From Escherichia coli (GTDB taxonomy: Bacteria; Pseudomonadota; Gammaproteobacteria; Enterobacterales; Enterobacteriaceae): 64,000 nt of DNA. The translations under genes and the position numbers were made by a program. Below the pieces are notes generated by a model. The model was not told where the DNA came from. It was given only the letters and a program-made list of their open reading frames with translations, and searched no databases. The stretch's first letter is position 1. Every line of letters starts with the position of its first letter. Positions 1 to 54,864 of the stretch are shown piece by piece. The stretch lies in the NCBI RefSeq assembly GCF_003334785.1, contig NZ_QOWV01000006.1; one strand, given 5' to 3'.

Positions 1-109
1 CTTGTTTCGCTTCAGAAGCGGTATAAACATCCCCTGACAGGGTGTCGTTATTAACACAACCGACAAGAGACAGACCTACCATTGAAACAACCAATACGCG
101 TTTAATCAT
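1..109 (-). CDS. slyB: Outer membrane lipoprotein SlyB, 5' end only (first 36 codons; gene runs off the left edge)
   Basis: Reverse-complement of 1-109 translates MIKRVLVVSMVGLSLVGCVNNDTLSGDVYTASEAKQ, a lipoprotein signal peptide with lipobox cysteine; divergent from anmK as in E. coli. Confidence 0.8.
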   Translation of the reverse strand, partial: MIKRVLVVSMVGLSLVGCVNNDTLSGDVYTASEAKQ

Positions 110-232
110 TGAAAAATCTCCTGTTCACCATGAAACGCCACGCAAGCATCCCTCATGGTCAAAGTATATGGCATATGTGAATCCATGGTTACATGTTCTA
201 CCAAATATGAGCAAATCATAATGAAAGTAGGA

Positions 233-249
233 TCAACCAATTATAAACA
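233..249 (-). promoter_or_regulatory. Candidate PhoP box upstream of slyB (TGTTTA-N5-GGTTGA on the minus strand)
   Basis: Direct-repeat hexamers with 5-nt spacer, one mismatch to the (T/G)GTTTA-N5-(T/G)GTTTA consensus; slyB is a known PhoP-activated gene. Confidence 0.4.
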
Positions 250-382
250 AAACATTCATGATGATTATTGATTTGAAGATAATGTTTTACTACCAACGGT
301 AAAAATCGGTCATTCCGCATGGTATTCACGAAAAGTTTATGTTTGAGTGGTGCGCAAACGTCAGATTGAAAAAGGATGAACT

Positions 383-1492
383 ATGAAATCGGGCCGCTTT
401 ATTGGCGTTATGTCAGGCACCAGCCTTGATGGTGTTGATGTTGTGTTGGCGACAATTGATGAACACCGGGTCGCACAGCTGGCAAGTTTGAGTTGGCCGA
501 TCCCGGTATCTCTGAAACAGGCTGTACTGGATATTTGCCAGGGCCAGCAGCTTACACTTTCGCAGTTTGGACAGCTTGATACTCAACTCGGGCGACTTTT
601 TGCTGATGCGGTCAATGCCTTGCTTAAGGAACAAAATCTGCAGGCAAGAGATATAGTTGCGATCGGTTGTCACGGTCAAACCGTCTGGCATGAACCGACG
701 GGCGTGGCACCACACACTTTACAGATTGGCGATAACAATCAAATTGTGGCACGCACCGGAATTACGGTTGTCGGTGATTTTCGCCGTCGCGATATTGCCT
801 TGGGAGGACAAGGCGCACCGCTGGTACCTGCGTTCCATCATGCGCTGCTGGCTCACCCAACCGAGCGACGAATGGTGCTCAATATTGGCGGCATCGCCAA
901 TCTGTCACTGCTCATTCCTGGGCAGCCGGTTGGGGGCTACGATACCGGTCCTGGTAACATGCTGATGGATGCCTGGATCTGGCGTCAGGCCGGTAAACCT
1001 TACGATAAAGATGCCGAGTGGGCACGGGCGGGTAAAGTTATTCTCCCACTGCTGCAAAATATGCTCAGCGACCCGTATTTCTCGCAACCTGCACCGAAAA
1101 GCACCGGACGCGAATACTTTAACTATGGTTGGCTGGAGCGCCATTTGCGCCATTTTCCGGGTGTTGATCCCCGAGATGTGCAGGCGACACTGGCAGAACT
1201 CACCGCCGTGACCATTTCTGAACAAGTTTTGTTGAGCGGTGGCTGCGAACGATTGATGGTATGTGGTGGAGGTAGTCGTAATCCGCTACTCATGGCGCGT
1301 CTGGCGGCATTACTGCCAGGCACAGAAGTCACCACCACCGATGCCGTTGGCATTAGTGGCGATGACATGGAAGCATTGGCTTTCGCCTGGCTTGCCTGGC
1401 GGACGCTGGCGGGATTACCAGGAAATCTGCCTTCCGTCACTGGCGCAAGCCAGGAGACGGTACTGGGGGCTATTTTCCCCGCTAACCCGTGA
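383..1492 (+). CDS. anmK: Anhydro-N-acetylmuramic acid kinase
   Basis: 369-aa ORF, recognised AnmK sequence; length matches. Confidence 0.93.
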
Positions 1493-1589
1493 TATCAGAG
1501 TTAACTGAATTTTTCTTACCGCGTCTGCCGTTACACTTGGAACGTTAGGGAGGGCGTATTGCCCTCCAGACCAGGAAAGTCTTCGGGAT

Positions 1590-1919
1590 ATGACTATGAA
1601 AAAACTGTTAATTATCATTTTGCCGGTCCTTCTCTCCGGCTGTAGCGCCTTTAATCAGCTGGTTGAGCGCATGCAAACCGATACGCTGGAATACCAGTGT
1701 GATGAAAAACCGTTGACGGTCAAACTGAATAATCCGCGCCAGGAGGTCAGTTTTGTTTACGATAATCAACTACTGCATCTCAAACAGGGCATTTCAGCCT
1801 CTGGCGCGCGTTACACTGACGGAATCTATGTTTTCTGGTCGAAAGGCGATGAAGCGACTGTCTATAAACGCGACCGCATCGTCTTGAATAACTGTCAGTT
1901 ACAAAATCCACAGCGTTGA
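1590..1919 (+). CDS. mliC: Membrane-bound lysozyme inhibitor of C-type lysozyme (lipoprotein)
   Basis: 109-aa ORF with lipoprotein signal (LLSGC); recognised MliC. Confidence 0.9.
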
Positions 1920-1977
1920 GATTTTTCCAGGGGCGGCGCACAATAGCGTCACCCACTGACAATCCGTAAAGAAAACC

Positions 1978-2634
1978 ATGTCTGATAACGACGAATTGCA
2001 GCAAATCGCGCATCTGCGCCGTGAATACACCAAAGGCGGGTTACGCCGCCGCGATCTTCCCGCCGATCCATTAACCCTTTTTGAACGTTGGCTCTCTCAG
2101 GCTTGTGAAGCCAAACTGGCGGACCCTACCGCGATGGTGGTCGCTACCGTGGATGAACATGGTCAGCCTTATCAGCGCATCGTTTTACTCAAACATTACG
2201 ACGAAAAAGGCATGGTGTTTTACACCAACCTCGGCAGCCGTAAAGCACATCAAATCGAAAATAATCCGCGCGTTAGCCTGCTGTTCCCGTGGCATACCCT
2301 TGAGCGCCAGGTGATGGTGATCGGTAAAGCAGAACGACTTTCGACTCTCGAAGTGATGAAATATTTTCATAGCCGCCCGCGTGATAGCCAGATTGGTGCA
2401 TGGGTTTCGAAGCAGTCCAGTCGCATTTCTGCCCGCGGTATCCTTGAAAGTAAATTCCTGGAGCTGAAGCAGAAGTTTCAACAGGGCGAAGTGCCATTGC
2501 CGAGCTTTTGGGGCGGTTTTCGCGTCAGCCTTGAACAGATTGAGTTCTGGCAGGGTGGTGAGCATCGCCTGCATGACCGCTTTTTGTACCAGCGTGAAAA
2601 TGATGCGTGGAAGATTGATCGTCTTGCACCCTGA
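1978..2634 (+). CDS. pdxH: Pyridoxine/pyridoxamine 5'-phosphate oxidase
   Basis: 218-aa ORF, recognised PdxH. Confidence 0.95.
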
Positions 2635-2762
2635 AAAGATGCAAAAATCTTGCTTTAATCGCTGGTACTCCTGATTCTGGCACTTTATTCTATGTCTCTT
2701 TCGCATCTGGCGAAAAGTCGTGTACCGGCAAAGGTGCAGTCGTTATATACATGGAGATTTTG

Positions 2763-4037
2763 ATGGCAAGCAGTAACTTGATTAAACAATTGCAAGAGCG
2801 GGGGCTGGTAGCCCAGGTGACGGACGAGGAAGCGTTAGCAGAGCGACTGGCGCAAGGCCCGATCGCGCTCTATTGCGGCTTCGATCCTACCGCTGACAGC
2901 TTGCATTTGGGGCATCTTGTTCCATTGTTATGCCTGAAACGCTTCCAGCAGGCGGGCCACAAGCCGGTTGCGCTGGTAGGCGGCGCGACGGGTCTGATTG
3001 GCGACCCGAGCTTCAAAGCTGCCGAGCGTAAGCTGAACACCGAAGAAACTGTTCAGGAGTGGGTGGACAAAATCCGTAAGCAGGTTGCCCCGTTCCTCGA
3101 TTTCGACTGTGGAGAAAACTCTGCTATCGCGGCGAACAACTATGACTGGTTCGGCAATATGAATGTGCTGACCTTCCTGCGCGATATTGGCAAACACTTC
3201 TCCGTTAACCAGATGATCAACAAAGAAGCGGTTAAGCAGCGTCTCAACCGTGAAGATCAGGGGATTTCGTTCACTGAGTTTTCCTACAACCTGTTGCAGG
3301 GTTATGACTTCGCCTGTCTGAACAAACAGTACGGTGTGGTGCTGCAAATTGGTGGTTCTGACCAGTGGGGTAACATCACTTCTGGTATCGACCTGACCCG
3401 TCGTCTGCATCAGAATCAGGTGTTTGGCCTGACCGTTCCGCTGATCACTAAAGCAGATGGCACCAAATTTGGTAAAACTGAAGGCGGCGCAGTCTGGTTG
3501 GATCCGAAGAAAACCAGCCCGTACAAATTCTACCAGTTCTGGATCAACACTGCGGATGCCGACGTTTACCGCTTCCTGAAGTTCTTCACCTTTATGAGCA
3601 TTGAAGAGATCAACGCCCTGGAAGAAGAAGATAAAAACAGCGGTAAAGCACCGCGCGCCCAGTATGTACTGGCGGAGCAGGTGACTCGTCTGGTTCACGG
3701 TGAAGAAGGTTTACAGGCGGCAAAACGTATTACCGAATGCCTGTTCAGCGGTTCTTTGAGTGCGCTGAGTGAAGCGGACTTCGAACAGCTGGCGCAGGAC
3801 GGCGTACCGATGGTTGAGATGGAAAAGGGCGCAGACCTGATGCAGGCACTGGTCGATTCTGAACTGCAACCTTCCCGTGGTCAGGCACGTAAAACTATCG
3901 CCTCCAATGCCATCACCATTAACGGTGAAAAACAGTCCGATCCTGAATACTTCTTTAAAGAAGAAGATCGTCTGTTTGGTCGTTTTACCTTACTGCGTCG
4001 CGGTAAAAAGAATTACTGTCTGATTTGCTGGAAATAA
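2763..4037 (+). CDS. tyrS: Tyrosyl-tRNA synthetase
   Basis: Class I aaRS HLGH motif (GHLVPL) and KFGKT (KMSKS-type) motif; 424 aa from MASSNL (ORF track starts 4 codons upstream at 2751). Confidence 0.95.
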
Positions 4038-4052
4038 TGCATTAAGTGGAAA

Positions 4053-4085
4053 GGGGGAGTGAGAAATCACTCCCCCTGGTTTTTA
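4053..4085 (+). terminator. Rho-independent terminator after tyrS
   Basis: GC-rich stem GGGGGAGTGA/TCACTCCCCC followed by a T-run. Confidence 0.7.
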
Positions 4086-4095
4086 TACAGGGAAC

Positions 4096-4959
4096 ATGAT
4101 GAAAAATATTCTCGCTATCCAGTCTCACGTTGTTTATGGTCATGCGGGTAACAGTGCGGCAGAGTTTCCGATGCGCCGCCTGGGCGCGAACGTCTGGCCG
4201 CTGAACACCGTTCAATTTTCTAATCACACCCAATACGGCAAATGGACTGGCTGCGTGATGCCGCCCAGCCATTTAACCGAAATTGTGCAAGGCATTGCCG
4301 CCATTGATAAATTACACACCTGTGATGCCGTATTAAGTGGCTATCTGGGATCGGCGGAGCAGGGTGAACATATCCTCGGTATCGTCCGTCAGGTGAAAGC
4401 CGCGAATCCGCAGGCGAAATATTTTTGCGATCCGGTAATGGGTCATCCGGAAAAAGGCTGTATCGTTGCACCGGGTGTCGCAGAGTTTCATGTGCGGCAC
4501 GGTTTGCCTGCCAGCGATATCATTGCGCCAAATCTGGTTGAGCTGGAAATACTCTGTGAGCATGCGGTAAATAACGTCGAAGAAGCGGTTCTGGCAGCGC
4601 GCGAACTCATTGCGCAAGGGCCACAAATTGTGTTGGTTAAACACCTGGCGCGAGCTGGCTACAGCCGTGACCGTTTTGAAATGCTGCTGGTCACCGCCGA
4701 TGAAGCCTGGCATATCAGCCGTCCGCTGGTGGATTTTGGTATGCGCCAGCCGGTAGGTGTTGGTGATGTGACGAGCGGTTTACTGCTGGTGAAACTGCTT
4801 CAGGGGGCAACGCTGCAGGAGGCGCTGGAACATGTGACCGCTGCAGTCTACGAAATCATGGTGACCACCAAAGCAATGCAGGAATATGAGCTGCAAGTGG
4901 TGGCTGCTCAGGATCGTATTGCCAAACCAGAACATTACTTCAGCGCAACAAAGCTCTGA
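4096..4959 (+). CDS. pdxY: Pyridoxal kinase 2
   Basis: 287-aa ORF, recognised PdxY (ribokinase-like fold). Confidence 0.95.
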
Positions 4960-4971
4960 AATATCTCATTT

Positions 4972-4995
4972 CGGCCCACAACGACCTGTGGGCCG
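4972..4995. terminator. Hairpin between convergent pdxY and gstA (possible bidirectional terminator)
   Basis: Inverted repeat CGGCCCACA...TGTGGGCCG; weak flanking U-tracts. Confidence 0.4.
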
Positions 4996-5002
4996 ATGGC
5001 TA

Positions 5003-5608
5003 TTACTTTAAGCCTTCCGCTGACAGCGCGTCTTGTACTTCCGGACGTTCAGCCATACGTTGCATAAATGCTGCAATGTGCTCTAACCCTTCCAGATTCA
5101 GTTTCACCGCGTATGCCCAGCGCAGAACCGTAAACAGATAGGCATCAGCAATTGTAAATCTTTGCCCGCAGATCCAGTGCTCATCCTTCAGTGCCTCGTT
5201 CACATATTGCAGCTTCTTCTCCAGCTGCGCGCGAACTGTCGGTTTGTACTCTTCCGGTGTATCAGGGCGAAACAGAGGTGTGAAACCTTTATGCAGCTCG
5301 GTGGCGATGTAATTCAGCCATTCGATGGTTTTATAGCGGGAAATACTGTTTACCGGTGCCAGCAACTGGCGGTCGGGGACGCTGTCGGCAAGATACTGCA
5401 TAATCGCTACGCCTTCCGTCAGCAAAGTACCGTCATCCAGCAGCAATGCAGGCACCTGCCCCTTAGGGTTAACGGCAAAGTAATCGTCACCGTTTTCGAG
5501 ACGTTTTTTCATTAAATCCACACTGACGAGGGTAAAATCCTTTCCGCTCTCACGCAGGGTGATATGGGAAGCGAGAGAGCAGGCACCCGGTTTGTAGAAC
5601 AATTTCAT
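5003..5608 (-). CDS. gstA: Glutathione S-transferase
   Basis: 201-aa ORF, recognised GstA. Confidence 0.95.
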
Positions 5609-5656
5609 CGGTAACTCCTTTTGTCTGTGGTTTAAAGTATGGTAGTGCGTTGCTGA

Positions 5657-5690
5657 ACAAAAAAAAAGCCGCTAACGAAAAGTTAGCGGC
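5657..5690 (-). terminator. Rho-independent terminator after dtpA
   Basis: Stem GCCGCTAAC...GTTAGCGGC followed on the minus strand by a 9-nt U-run. Confidence 0.7.
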
Positions 5691-5713
5691 TTGTAAAAGA
5701 GTTTCCCTGAATT

Positions 5714-7216
5714 TTACGCTACGGCTGCTTTCGCCGCTTTGTCTGCAGCGTCATCCTGCGTCATGCGGTGCAGTTTCGGCGCGGTCAGCAGCATCAGTAC
5801 TGCAATAACGGCAGTAGCGACACCAATCTGCAAGAATACGCGACCATAGACTTCCAGTGACATCAGCGGATCGGTAACGTTATCCGGCACAGCCATCATA
5901 CCCGCAACATAACCACCAATCAGGTTTGCACCGGCAGTGGTCAGGAACCAGCTACCCATAATGAAGCCCATCAGACGCTGCGGAACGAGTTGAGCAACCA
6001 TTGCCAGACCCAGACCAGAGATCATCAGTTCCCCGATGCTCTGCAGGCCATAGCTTGCGACCAGCCAGCTTACAGACACGATACCAGCGTCAGACGCGAA
6101 TTTCGCACCCAGCGGCAGAATCAGGAACGCACCAGAACACATCACCTTGCCGATTGCAAACTTGGTTGGCATCGGCAGGGTATCGCCCATCTTGTTATAG
6201 ATAGCGGCCAGAATCGGACTACCGATGATGATCCAGAACGGGTTCAGTGCCTGATACTGCTCAGGTTCTACGGCCAGACCCAGAATGGAGTGCTCAACGT
6301 TACGAATCGCAAAGAAGTTCAGTGACGTTGGCATCTGGCTGTACAGCACGAAGAAGATAATGGCTTCGAGCATCAGGATGAAGGCAACGATCATTTTACG
6401 ACGCGCAGCACCTTTCATCGCGAAGGCTTCTTTACCGAAGATAACCACGATACCGAAGGCAACAACGCCCAGCGCCATACGCGCAACTTCCTGATTGTGC
6501 AGCAGCCAGGTGGCGATAGCGATCAGTGCCACAACACCAATAATGGTCAGCAGCAGGTTACGGTAGTTGATAGGCTCGAAGTCTGGTTTTGAACCGTACT
6601 GTTTAACCCAGCGTTGGCAGAAGGCGAAGTTAACGATAGTGATCAGCAGGCCTACAACGCTCAACGCAAACGCAACACTCCAGCCGTATTTCGCGGCCAG
6701 CCACGGCGTAGCAATCATAGAGAAGAAAGAGCCGATGTTGACGGACATGTAGTACATGGTGAATGCACCGTCCAGACGCGGGTCGTTTTTCTCATAGCAT
6801 GTAGAAAGCAGAGAAGACGGGTTAGCTTTAAACAGGCCGTTACCGACCGCAATAGCCGCCATACCCATATAAACGATACCGGCGTCGTGACCAGACCAGG
6901 CAACCAGAGCATAACCAATCGCCAGCACAATAGCGCCGAGCATAATTACGCGTTTAGTACCCAGTACCTTGTCACCTAACCAGCCGCCGATAGCGACCAG
7001 ACCATAAACCAGGGCACTAAAGGAAGAGAAAAGGGTGATTGAATCCGCTTCAGACATACCCAGTTGTTTAACCAGGTAAACAGCCATAATTCCTTGTAGG
7101 CCGTAATAACCAAAACGTTCCCATAACTCAATCGAGAAGATGAGATAGAACGCCTTCGGTTGTTTGAAAGCGTTCAAACTGACGCTTTCAGTTGGTTTTT
7201 GGTTTGCAGTGGACAC
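5714..7216 (-). CDS. dtpA: Dipeptide/tripeptide:H+ symporter (POT family)
   Basis: 500-aa polytopic membrane ORF, recognised DtpA/TppB. Confidence 0.95.
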
Positions 7217-9784: not shown

Positions 9785-10843
9785 TTACCCTTTGCGATGG
9801 CCGTAGACGCGCGGACGCGTGTAGTAATCGATCAGAGGAACCGTGATGTTCGCCAGCAGGACGGCAAAAGCCACGCCGTCAGGATAGCCGCCGAAACTGC
9901 GGATCAACCAGACTAATAAGCCCGCAAGCGCGCCGAAAATAAGACGACCACGATTGGTCGTAGAAGCGGTAACCGGGTCAGTCAAAATAAAGAATGCGCC
10001 GAGCATGGTCGCTCCAGACAGCAGATGAATTTGCGGTGCTGCCAGTGTTTCTGGTGAGAACAACCAGCCCAACATTGCGCATAACGCCAGCGTTACTAAG
10101 AAGCTGAGGGGAATATGCCAGCGAATCGCTTTCTGCCATAGCAACCATACGCCGCCAGCCAGCCAGGCGAGATTTACCCATTGCCAACCAGCGCCCGCCA
10201 GAATACCGCTGTAGATCGGATATTGCATAATCTGTTCAACCGAATGACCGGCACGGACAGAGGTTTTAAATGTATCCAGCGGTGTCGCCTGACTAATGCC
10301 ATCAATACCTAAGCGTAGTGTGTTCATATCACCACCACTGGCGGTATGACCGCTAAAAATAACCTGGATGGCGTCGATAAAACCAGGGATGTTGACCGCA
10401 ATTTCATGTGGCGGTAACCAGCTGGTCATCTGCACGGGGAAGGAGATCAGTAAGACCACATAACCAATCATTGCCGGATTAAACGGGTTTTGTCCCAGAC
10501 CGCCATACAACTGTTTAGCGATGATCACCGCAAACACCGTACCCAGCACGACCATCCACCATGGCGCGAGGGGGGGAATACTTACCGCCAGCAATAAGCC
10601 TGTCAGCAATGCTGAGTTATCTTTCAACGTTGCGGCTACCGACTGCTTGCGTAGTTTGAGTACGAGAGCTTCGGCTAACAGAGCACTAACCGATGCCAAC
10701 AGGATCTGAACGAGAGTACCCCAACCAAAAAACCACAGTTGCGCTGCGATTCCTGGCACGGCTGCGAGCAACACCAACAGCATAATGCGCGATGTCTGGC
10801 GCTGGTTATGGGTATAAGGGGAGCTAGCTATTCTGAATACCAT
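9785..10843 (-). CDS. rsxD: Rnf-type complex subunit D
   Basis: 352-aa membrane ORF, recognised RsxD. Confidence 0.9.
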
Positions 10844-23523: not shown

Positions 23524-23681
23524 TTCTCTCTCTTTTTCGGCGGGCTGGTGATAACTGTGCCCGCGTTTCATATCGTAATTTCTCTGTGCAAAAATTATCC
23601 TTCCCGGCTTCGGAGAATTCCCCCCAAAATATTCACTGTAGCCATATGTCATGAGAGTTTATCGTTCCCAATACGCTCGAA

Positions 23682-23691
23682 CGAACGTTCG
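23682..23691. promoter_or_regulatory. Candidate operator palindrome CGAACGTTCG in the uidR-uidA intergenic region
   Basis: Perfect 10-bp palindrome within a CGAACGAACG direct repeat, upstream of uidA. Confidence 0.35.
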
Positions 23692-23837
23692 GTTGCTTAT
23701 TTTATGGCTTCTGTCAACGCTGTTTTAAAGATTAATGCGATCTATATCACGCTGTGGGTATTGCAGTTTTTGGTTTTTTGATCGCGGTGTCAGTTCTTTT
23801 TATTTCCATTTCTCTTCCATGGGTTTCTCACAGATAA

Positions 23838-27095
<3,258 letters not shown>

Positions 27096-28624: not shown

Positions 28625-30133
28625 TTACTGCTGCGGAATTGCCGGTACAGCCGGAACGTTAAGAGCTGGCATCGCAAACATGCCAACAAAATCTTCTAAC
28701 GACATTTTCTGCCCATTTAACGTTATCTGACCGTTAGCATATTGCAGGCTGGTGGTGATGGTATTGTCCTGCAAGGTGGTCAGACGGAACATCTGCCCCA
28801 TTGCTGATGCACCTTCAACTTGCTGTTTCGCCAGTTTTTTCGCTTGATCTTCCTGATAACCTTCCAGCTTCGCTACCTGAGTCACAAACTCAGTTGCCAT
28901 ATCCACCGGAATGGTCAGTTTCGCATCCAGAGATTTAACCGAACGATCTACTTCCTGCGCCAGCGTTTGCGGCGCTTCTTTAGTCGTTGCCGGATCTTTC
29001 AGGAACAGCGACAGATTCAGGGCACTTTCACCCTGACTGTTTTTCCAGCTTAGCGGCGCGATAGTAATCACCGGATCGCCTTTCAGCATCAGCGGCAGGG
29101 CGCTAAAGAAGGCTTCCGTCACTTTCTCCTGATAAAGTTCGGGGTTGTTGGCAATTTCTGGCTGTGCCAGCAGCGCCTGAGTTTGCGCGTTATATTGCTG
29201 GCTAAACTGATGCCAGGCTTCACCATCAATCTGGCCGACTTTTAAAGTCAGCTTGCCGCTGCCCAGATCCTGATTCTGTACCTTCAGGCTGTTTAGCGAG
29301 TAATCCAGTTGGCTATTGATCGTTTTACCGTCATTGACCAGATCCGATTTACCGCTGATCTCCATGCCTTCCAGCAGTGCCAGTTCTTTGCCTTCCACTG
29401 AAATGGTCATTTTTTCCAGTGACAGTTTTTGATTTCCTACACGCTCACCAAAACTTGCCAGCGTGCTGGAACCGTCGGTTTTCAGATTATTAAAGGTCAA
29501 CTGCACTTTCTGGTTGTATTCGTTAACTGCGTCTATCCGACCACTTTGCGCCTCCCCGGAAAGGGAGATGGCTTTGCCGTCTCTGTCAGCATTTAACTGG
29601 AACTCGCCGCCGCTAAAGGCGACTTTTTCATCCTTTTGCTCGTAATTCAGTGGCTTGAGCGAAATATCGGAACTGGAATCACCGCTGTAACCAATGCGCG
29701 AGTTAATCTCAAAAGGCGTTTCACCTTTTGCCATATCAAACAGTGGTTTGCTTACTTCGTTATTAACCAGCGTGGTTTGAATTGATGCCATCGACGGGAT
29801 CAGGTTCAGTTTTTTAAGCTGGGCAAGCGGGAAGGGACCATGATCAACCGATTCGTTGAAGATGACGCTCTGACCGCTTTTAATCCACGGATTTTCTTTC
29901 CCGGCAATGGGTTTCACCAACAGTTGCAACTGGCTGCTGAATACGCCGCGATGATAGTTTTGATAACTCACTTCCAGGTTGGATTCAGGAGCTGTCAGTT
30001 TGAGTTGCGCGTTCGCCTGCGCGACCATGTCTTCGAGATGGGTTTCAATCTTCTTGCCTGTATACCATGCGCCGCCTGTCCAGACTACGCCTAGCGCAAC
30101 AATGACGCCTACCGCTACCAGCGATTTATTCAT
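28625..30133 (-). CDS. ydgA: DUF945-family periplasmic protein YdgA
   Basis: 502-aa ORF with N-terminal signal/anchor; recognised YdgA. Confidence 0.9.
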   Translation of the reverse strand: MNKSLVAVGVIVALGVVWTGGAWYTGKKIETHLEDMVAQANAQLKLTAPESNLEVSYQNYHRGVFSSQLQLLVKPIAGKENPWIKSGQSVIFNESVDHGPFPLAQLKKLNLIPSMASIQTTLVNNEVSKPLFDMAKGETPFEINSRIGYSGDSSSDISLKPLNYEQKDEKVAFSGGEFQLNADRDGKAISLSGEAQSGRIDAVNEYNQKVQLTFNNLKTDGSSTLASFGERVGNQKLSLEKMTISVEGKELALLEGMEISGKSDLVNDGKTINSQLDYSLNSLKVQNQDLGSGKLTLKVGQIDGEAWHQFSQQYNAQTQALLAQPEIANNPELYQEKVTEAFFSALPLMLKGDPVITIAPLSWKNSQGESALNLSLFLKDPATTKEAPQTLAQEVDRSVKSLDAKLTIPVDMATEFVTQVAKLEGYQEDQAKKLAKQQVEGASAMGQMFRLTTLQDNTITTSLQYANGQITLNGQKMSLEDFVGMFAMPALNVPAVPAIPQQ

Positions 30134-52765: not shown

Positions 52766-53461
52766 ATGCTGAAGCGTTTCTTTATTACCGGTACAGACAC
52801 TTCTGTAGGGAAAACGGTGGTTTCCCGCGCATTGCTACAAGCGTTAGCCTCCCAGGGAAAAACGGTTGCGGGATATAAACCCGTAGCGAAGGGGAGCAAA
52901 GAGACACCCGAAGGGCTGCGTAATAAAGATGCCCTGGTGTTGCAGAGTGTTTCAACCATCGAACTGCCTTATGAAGCAGTTAATCCTATCGCGTTAAGCG
53001 AAGAAGAAAGTAGCGTGGCGCACAGTTGCCCAATCAATTACACCCTCATTTCAAACGGCCTGGCAAACCTGACCGAAAAAGTCGATCATGTCGTGGTAGA
53101 AGGGACTGGCGGCTGGCGCAGTCTGATGAATGATTTGCGTCCACTCTCTGAATGGGTAGTGCAGGAACAACTGCCGGTGTTGATGGTTGTCGGTATTCAG
53201 GAAGGTTGCATTAACCATGCACTGCTAACAGCTCAGGCGATCGCCAACGACGGGCTGCCGCTCATTGGCTGGGTGGCTAACCGAATCAACCCAGGACTGG
53301 CGCATTATGCGGAAATCATTGATGTGCTGGGTAAAAAACTTCCGGCACCGCTCATTGGTGAACTGCCTTATCTGCCGCGCGCCGAACAGCGTGAACTGGG
53401 GCAATACATCCGCTTAGCTATGCTGCGCAGTGTGCTGGCGGTAGATAGAGTCACGGTGTAA
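52766..53461 (+). CDS. ynfK: Dethiobiotin synthetase paralog (BioD2)
   Basis: 231 aa from [17 protein letters not shown] (P-loop). Confidence 0.9.
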
Positions 53462-54670
53462 CGTCCGCGAAATTACCGACGCAATTACGCAGGCAATCAA
53501 TAAACCGGGGAGTAGCTGATACTCCCCGGTCATTTCACATATCATCAACGTCGACATAATCGGCGCGTGCGTGGTCGCCGCCAACAGTGTCGCCATCCCG
53601 GTCAATCCGAGTAAAAGTGTAATTTCTTCGCCATCAGGGAACCATAATCCCAGGCTACGACCATACAACATGCCAATGGCAAGACCGATAAATAGCGTCG
53701 GTGTAAAGACCCCACCGGGTGCGCCGGAACCGCTACTCGCCAGCACGGCACACAGTTTACAAAGGAAGATCCCGGCAATGATCATTAACAGTGGTGGGGC
53801 GGTTAAAAAGGATTGTACGGTGCTATAGCCGTTGCCCCACACTGCAGGTGTGAACAGGGAAAGCAGACCCACGATCAACCCGCCTAGTGCCAGTTGCCAG
53901 GGCGGCGCAAGTTTGAGACTCACAAATCCACGATGACAGGCGTTCATTAACGTTAACAACAGTGGTCCGCACAGACCTGCCAGCACACCTGTACTGATAA
54001 TCAGCGCATAGTCACGAGCCTGAACCGTCACTGAGAGTTGTACGTTGTAGAGTAACGCGTCGCTATGATTAATCAGATTGCTAACCAGCAATGCCACGAC
54101 GGCGGAAATAATCACCGGGCCGAGAGAGGCCAACATCATAGTGCCAAACAGCACTTCGGCTATAAATAAACTGCCAGCAAGCGGGGCACGATAGGCCGCA
54201 GCCATTCCCGCCGCGGCCCCACAGGCGATCCATAATTTCCACTCCTGGCGTGGCGTAAAACGTTGGGCAAAACAGGAGGCGGCAAGGGCAGCTTAAAGAA
54301 TCATCGCACCTTCGCGACCAATTGCACTGCCGCTGGTTACTACCAGCAGAGAGGCAAGCGATTTAACCAGGCTTGCTGCGTAATCGAACTGTCCATCGGT
54401 TTGCAACGCTTCCATATAATCGGTCGGCGCATGAGGGCGTTGTTGGGTAAATTTCTGCCAGCCCATCAGCAACAAACCCGCCGCCAGTCCGCCGAGCGCC
54501 GGAGTTAGCAACCGTCGCCAGGGGGAAAGGTTTGTCGCTGCATTGACCAGACTGCCGGAGTCATTATTGAGGAACAACCACTCCAGTAGCAGCATCGCAT
54601 GACGAAACCCGGCAACGGCAAAGGCCGCGAGAATACCGACGACTGTTGCGATAAGCAGACGGCGGAACAT
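53414..54670 (-). pseudogene. clcB: CLC-family Cl-/H+ transporter ClcB, interrupted by an in-frame TAA at 54293-54295
   Basis: Track ORFs 54293-54730 and 53414-54205 share a frame; read-through from MFRRLL to the terminal HS gives exactly 418 codons with a GREG motif just upstream of the stop. Confidence 0.6.
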
Positions 54671-54864
54671 AGTGCGCAGATCCGGATAGATGTGTAGATG
54701 ATGCATGAGCAGAAATGGGCAATGAAACACGGGCGACTATTTTGCGGCAAAAGAGGCCAGCCGCAAAAGCAGTGCGTGCTTTAAGAGATAAAAAAACGTG
54801 ACACTGTAACCTATTATTGCCGGATTGCGCGTAATCGTCACCATCCGGCAATATTACGGTGATC

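Follow-up and report, generated by a model that had tools for sequence, protein, structure and literature searches.

Within a 64,000-nucleotide stretch of an Escherichia coli genome (hereafter the window), the coding region of the CLC-type transporter ClcB is interrupted by one stop codon, and the question raised by this locus is whether the interruption is an artefact of sequencing or of laboratory culture, a stop that the cell circumvents, or an inherited loss of the gene. The open reading frame list holds two minus-strand ORFs in one frame: a 145-aa ORF that opens with an upstream GTG (54293..54730) and a 263-aa ORF that opens with an ATG (53414..54205). Translated from the K-12 start MFRRLL, clcB (ynfJ/mriT; 53414-54670, minus strand) is composed of 125 sense codons, a TAA as codon 126 and 292 further codons, for a total of 418 positions. 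The TAA occupies 54295-54293, where the plus strand reads TTA, and comes four codons after the GREG motif (codons 118-121; 54308..54319, minus strand). The predicted truncated product is thus 125 aa long (54296..54670, minus strand; 137 aa from the PGAP start) and ends four residues past GREG. From the stop to the ATG of Met156 at 54205 there are 87 nt, or 29 open codons (54206..54292, residues 127-155 of the intact protein), which contain no in-frame ATG, GTG or TTG. The 263-codon ORF that begins at Met156 is the remnant of the C-terminal two thirds of clcB. The sequence at the stop site, which can be spanned by a 31-mer, is CTTTAAGCT. A preliminary description, made from the letters of this DNA, had reported the two same-frame ORFs, the single stop just after GREG and the 29 open codons, and all of its coordinates and counts were reproduced. 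The start of clcB differs by source: the K-12 annotation places it at 54670 (MFRRLL, 418 aa), and PGAP at an ATG that lies 36 nt further upstream (54706, 430 aa). The PGAP ATG shows no pairing with the anti-SD sequence (+2.2 kcal/mol), compared with −3.3 kcal/mol for the K-12 start.

The identity of the interrupted gene is evident from both its profile match and its surroundings. With the stop read as Leu, the translation scores 866.9 bits against the ClcB equivalog (NCBIfam NF002437, voltage-gated ClC-type chloride channel ClcB; cut-off 425 bits), and residues 1-418 align to profile positions 12-429 of 429. Read-through from MFRRLL therefore gives a complete 418-codon CLC transporter from end to end, as had been proposed. 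In contrast, the 125-aa N-terminal fragment covers profile positions 12-136 of 429 and scores 246.8 bits, which is below the cut-off. The gene order, ynfEFGH-dmsD, clcB and bidA/ynfK-mlc, is alike in the window, K-12 MG1655 and E. coli C. The uninterrupted frame expected of a ClcB orthologue is broken here by the TAA at codon 126, and, judged from its sequence, the locus is a clcB pseudogene rather than a functional member of the ClcB family.

The lesion consists of one base. Aligned base by base, the clcB of the window departs from the intact allele of strain 300709 (WP_001315626.1) at one position in 1257 nt, a coding-strand T to A change at window position 54294 that converts Leu126 (TTA) to TAA. 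Both K-12 MG1655 and E. coli C read CTT TTA GCT at this site, whereas the window reads CTT TAA GCT. These three comparisons agree with the change of TTA to TAA at codon 126 that the preliminary description had guessed. The comparison with the K-12 reference that it had recommended was also made: MG1655 clcB (b1592) is not split, but is an intact 418-aa gene annotated as "putative chloride:H(+) antiporter ClcB". When 61 CDS positions were transferred from the annotation of strain VE-F10 and translated from the window, clcB alone contained an internal stop; the other 60 are intact, in line with the earlier statement that the remaining genes of the window are full length.

The distribution of the nonsense base was determined with a SNP probe, a 55-nt megablast query centred on the variant base, for which the 28-nt word size lets only variant-bearing sequences seed. 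The stop SNP was detected in nine of 5,426 complete RefSeq E. coli genomes, a lower bound because the probe misses carriers with other SNPs on both sides within 27 nt. A near-full-length clcB match is present in 5,414 of the 5,426 genomes (>99%), and eight of these matches are at 100% identity; clcB is 100% identical to that of the window in eight of the nine carriers. Each of the nine has its clcB annotated by PGAP as "pseudo, internal stop". The carriers were isolated in eight countries on four continents, from human, pig, cloacal-swab and wastewater samples: FDAARGOS_1248 (human, USA), VE-F10 (Vietnam), JKHS016 (hospital wastewater, Japan), LR-64-2 (human faeces, Ecuador), 200112 (human stool, Mali), PEC399 (swine faeces, South Korea), AST198 (human, Japan), 364_BP0073 (urine, Cambodia) and E423 (cloacal swab, China). 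Further local decay is seen in some of the carriers. In AST198, a Rac-like prophage (kil, recE, bet, integrase) lies inside ynfG and ISShdy1 splits ydgI (positions 1-7031 and 23573-26621 of that locus sequence, L010), and in E423, ynfE also has an internal stop (45490-47916 of L012).

The nonsense base travels with a second marker. A synonymous SNP in speG (Tyr135, TAC to TAT; window 63397, minus strand), 9.1 kb from the stop, is found by the same probe approach in exactly the same nine genomes. A SNP at the fumA locus (31738) is common to 119 genomes, with carriers among them. Because the speG SNP is confined to the nine genomes and the fumA-locus SNP is shared more broadly, the carriers most likely constitute a single clade inside a larger phylogroup-A-like group, with the stop having arisen once; this monophyly rests on linked markers in a 50-kb region. 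Over the 50 kb compared, the haplotype of the carriers is very near those of K-12 and C. Within the 50 kb that they have in common with the window, a few dozen sites vary among the carriers, which can be divided into subgroups: seven private SNPs unite FDAARGOS_1248 and 200112; two unite LR-64-2, PEC399, 364_BP0073 and VE-F10; and one unites the window, JKHS016 and AST198, whose haplotypes are closest at position 28885. As subgroups are set apart by up to seven such SNPs per 50 kb, the allele is not of very recent origin. The window carries the same nonsense SNP and linked speG marker as the RefSeq clcB pseudogenes of the nine carriers, and elsewhere a few SNPs separate it from each of them (five SNPs per 64 kb from VE-F10), so that the window is another member of the carrier clade. 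Several of the SNPs that distinguish sub-lineages are non-synonymous: pntA E59 in the window versus G (42257), ydgA V417 versus M (28885), fumA-locus L44 versus P (31738) and ydgJ L78 versus F (15910). As a matter of naming only, the class I fumarase gene beside fumC (31608-33254) is called "fumB" by PGAP in the RefSeq isolates, whereas the syntenic K-12 gene is fumA (b1612).

The same truncated products are found well beyond complete genomes. In a 15-billion-protein collection, the exact 125-aa N-terminal fragment occurs on 619 contigs of public assemblies (936 index blocks) and the exact 263-aa C-terminal fragment on 689 contigs. Of six contigs that were sampled, four differ from the window by no more than one SNP across 12-20 kb, and none of the six matches it exactly. 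As an allele frequency for the SNP, the figure of 619 contigs was considered and rejected, since at least one assembly, CP026836.1 (~1.4% divergent), makes the same 125-aa peptide through a different lesion and peptide counts thus slightly over-count the SNP. In CP026836.1, the loss of one nucleotide from the same T-run (CTTTTAG to CTTTAG; positions 10351-10400, corresponding to window 54270-54320) creates a TAG. This sequence also has ynfE, ynfF and dmsD in pieces, for which either Shigella-like gene decay or homopolymer sequencing errors are possible.

Other truncated forms of ClcB are present among protein clusters: a 142-aa form that ends in FTPRQ (45 and 11 contigs, in two backgrounds), frameshifted forms of 164 and 165 aa (the latter on 37 contigs), and pieces of 122 and 241 aa from Shigella sonnei. 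Like the window allele, these forms and that of CP026836.1 are truncated within the N-terminal third of ClcB, with the C-terminal ORF left behind as a remnant. They differ from it in their mutations and haplotype backgrounds and hence would represent independent events, known mostly at the protein level, where partial proteins at contig ends or errors may be included. Their sequences suggest that clcB has been inactivated repeatedly and independently, as would fit a gene that E. coli and Shigella can do without. Several independent truncations, together with the geographically widespread carrier clade, could also be read as a sign of positive selection for clcB loss in this lineage, rather than of drift of a neutral or mildly deleterious change. 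This appears unlikely. The stop is confined to nine complete genomes and over 99% retain a near-full-length match, a pattern of rarity that is expected of a dispensable gene under weak purifying selection; no phenotype that favours loss is known; and the spread is accounted for just as well if the allele hitch-hiked with a successful clone.

Taken together, these results make it very probable that the window contains a genuine, vertically inherited loss-of-function allele of clcB that stems from one nonsense change in a small E. coli clade. The pattern is that of a lineage-specific pseudogene: an intact relative differs at the stop only, and the stop recurs in independent isolates with a linked marker and a nested position. 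In the proposed scenario, a single T to A transversion would have turned Leu126 into an ochre stop in the ancestor of the clade, a phylogroup-A-like E. coli related to strains C and K-12, and this one mutational event would have been followed by diversification and world-wide spread. Translation is predicted to end after residue 125, just past the gating-glutamate motif. The allele may persist because clcB is dispensable while clcA is intact, with ClcA presumably redundant. Under extreme acid, survival is markedly lower only in the clcA clcB double knockout, in comparison with the wild type and the single mutants (PMC10394335), and for this reason a clcB null is plausibly tolerated. Moreover, clcB is followed by no further gene on its strand, and the 48 bp at its 3' end (53414..53461) are shared with the convergent bidA (ynfK; "bioD" in PGAP). 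No polar effect on a co-transcribed gene is therefore expected. JKHS016 has a further non-synonymous change downstream of the stop, M179I, which is anecdotal but in the direction that fits relaxed constraint.

An error of sequencing, base calling or assembly peculiar to the genome of the window, one of the options left open by the preliminary description, has next to no probability. Assembly artefacts commonly take the form of single-base stops, a short T-run (CTTTTA) lies beside the wild-type site, and CP026836.1 has lost one nucleotide at this place and contains several other split genes; yet the change in the window is a substitution and not an error in homopolymer length. Nine complete genomes, which differ in laboratory, platform and country, have the identical base, as do hundreds of draft assemblies; a SNP 9 kb away is in perfect linkage with it, and the remaining 60 CDS of the window are intact. 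The mutation is just as improbable as a product of the laboratory propagation of a domesticated strain, which had also been offered as an option. Although the 50-kb haplotype is very close to those of the laboratory strains K-12 and C, both of these read TTA, the carriers are field and clinical isolates (stool, urine, swine faeces, cloacal swab and wastewater) of varied hosts and countries, and they diverged from each other after the mutation. What stands from the earlier options is the strain-specific pseudogene, which is more exactly lineage-specific given the nine complete genomes with the same base.

The remaining explanations accept the stop as real and assign function to what is left. 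Eukaryotic CLC channels have been reconstituted from co-expressed fragments. One could propose that clcB is still functional, either because the stop is read through or suppressed, or because the 125-aa and 263-aa pieces assemble into a two-piece CLC. The downstream ORF is open and identical to the wild type in most carriers, and the G-rich stretch upstream of Met156 pairs with the anti-SD sequence about as well as a median gene start (−5.5 kcal/mol versus a median of −5.4 at the annotated starts of the window, with spacing to the ATG ignored), a strength that speaks neither for nor against a restart. An open ORF is, however, what is expected of a young pseudogene, and the downstream ORF of JKHS016 already contains M179I. 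A product restarted at Met156 would lack residues 126-155, which on the ClcA alignment take in the remainder of helix F and the segment after it. Of the three stop codons, TAA terminates translation with the highest efficiency in E. coli. In sister lineages this position is a plain Leu codon, such that the stop is not a conserved recoding site, and neither a recoding signal nor a suppressor tRNA, nor indeed any tRNA gene, is present in the 64-kb window. Programmed read-through is thus at odds with a stop that occurs in nine of 5426 genomes, with relatives that read TTA and with a window devoid of tRNA genes, and retained function is hardly credible. A broader and more speculative proposal is that the stop is not a dead end: the 125-aa piece, the Met156 piece or both could be functional, as a two-piece CLC or as a modulator of ClcA, or the untranslated 3' part of clcB could alter convergent transcription into bidA/ynfK, with loss of the full-length protein selected in a globally spread commensal lineage. 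This too is considered highly unlikely.

The inherited nonsense allele is an ordinary lineage-specific pseudogene, which is already flagged in RefSeq for the sister genomes; no published description of it was found among the literature matches listed. The assembly of the window is accurate at the stop site, and clcB should be annotated there as a pseudogene, as RefSeq does for the sister genomes. The TAA together with the speG TAT (Tyr135), a neutral SNP, constitutes a handy marker of the clade. In the literature, a ClcB phenotype is described only when clcA is also deleted (PMC10394335). The carriers would be natural clcB-null strains, in which the still ill-defined function of ClcB could be probed.

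Comparison with K-12 ClcB and CLC-ec1 illustrates what the truncation is predicted to remove. K-12 ClcB (b1592, YnfJ/MriT; UniProt P76175) is encoded at the same locus, between dmsD and bidA/ynfK, and has 418 aa with TTA as codon 126, compared with a predicted 125 aa and TAA in the window. CLC-ec1 (ClcA/EriC), the structurally solved E. coli Cl−/H+ exchanger, belongs to the same fold family, and a phmmer search against PDB sequences aligns ClcB residues 5-402 to ClcA residues 36-437 (E-value ~1e-26). ClcA is a paralogue and not an orthologue of ClcB: the read-through ClcB scores 161.9 bits with the ClcA equivalog, for which the cut-off is 350. In the phmmer alignment, ClcB G118-R-E-G121 falls on ClcA G146-R-E148-G149, within the GREGP motif that holds Glu148, the gating glutamate of CLC-ec1, and Leu126 falls on about Ile154, in the helix after. 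By this alignment, the 125-aa fragment would lack roughly helices F to R; in all, ~70% of the transporter is missing from it. Based on the alignment and on established knowledge of CLC-ec1, the lost portion would include the FIAE/FIIEE internal-glutamate region, the GGVFTP (GxFxP) anion-binding loop and the GEYQL tyrosine region. A fragment without these regions should therefore have no Cl−/H+ transport pathway, and the allele is inferred to be one of loss of function. The part that is retained also differs from ClcA: HAPTDYME in ClcB (residues ~78-90, window ~54400-54440) lies opposite the ClcA GSGIP loop with the central serine S107. A review describes the key residues of ClcB as similar (PMC10394335). 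Because HAPTDYME replaces the serine loop, intact ClcB may coordinate anions differently from ClcA.
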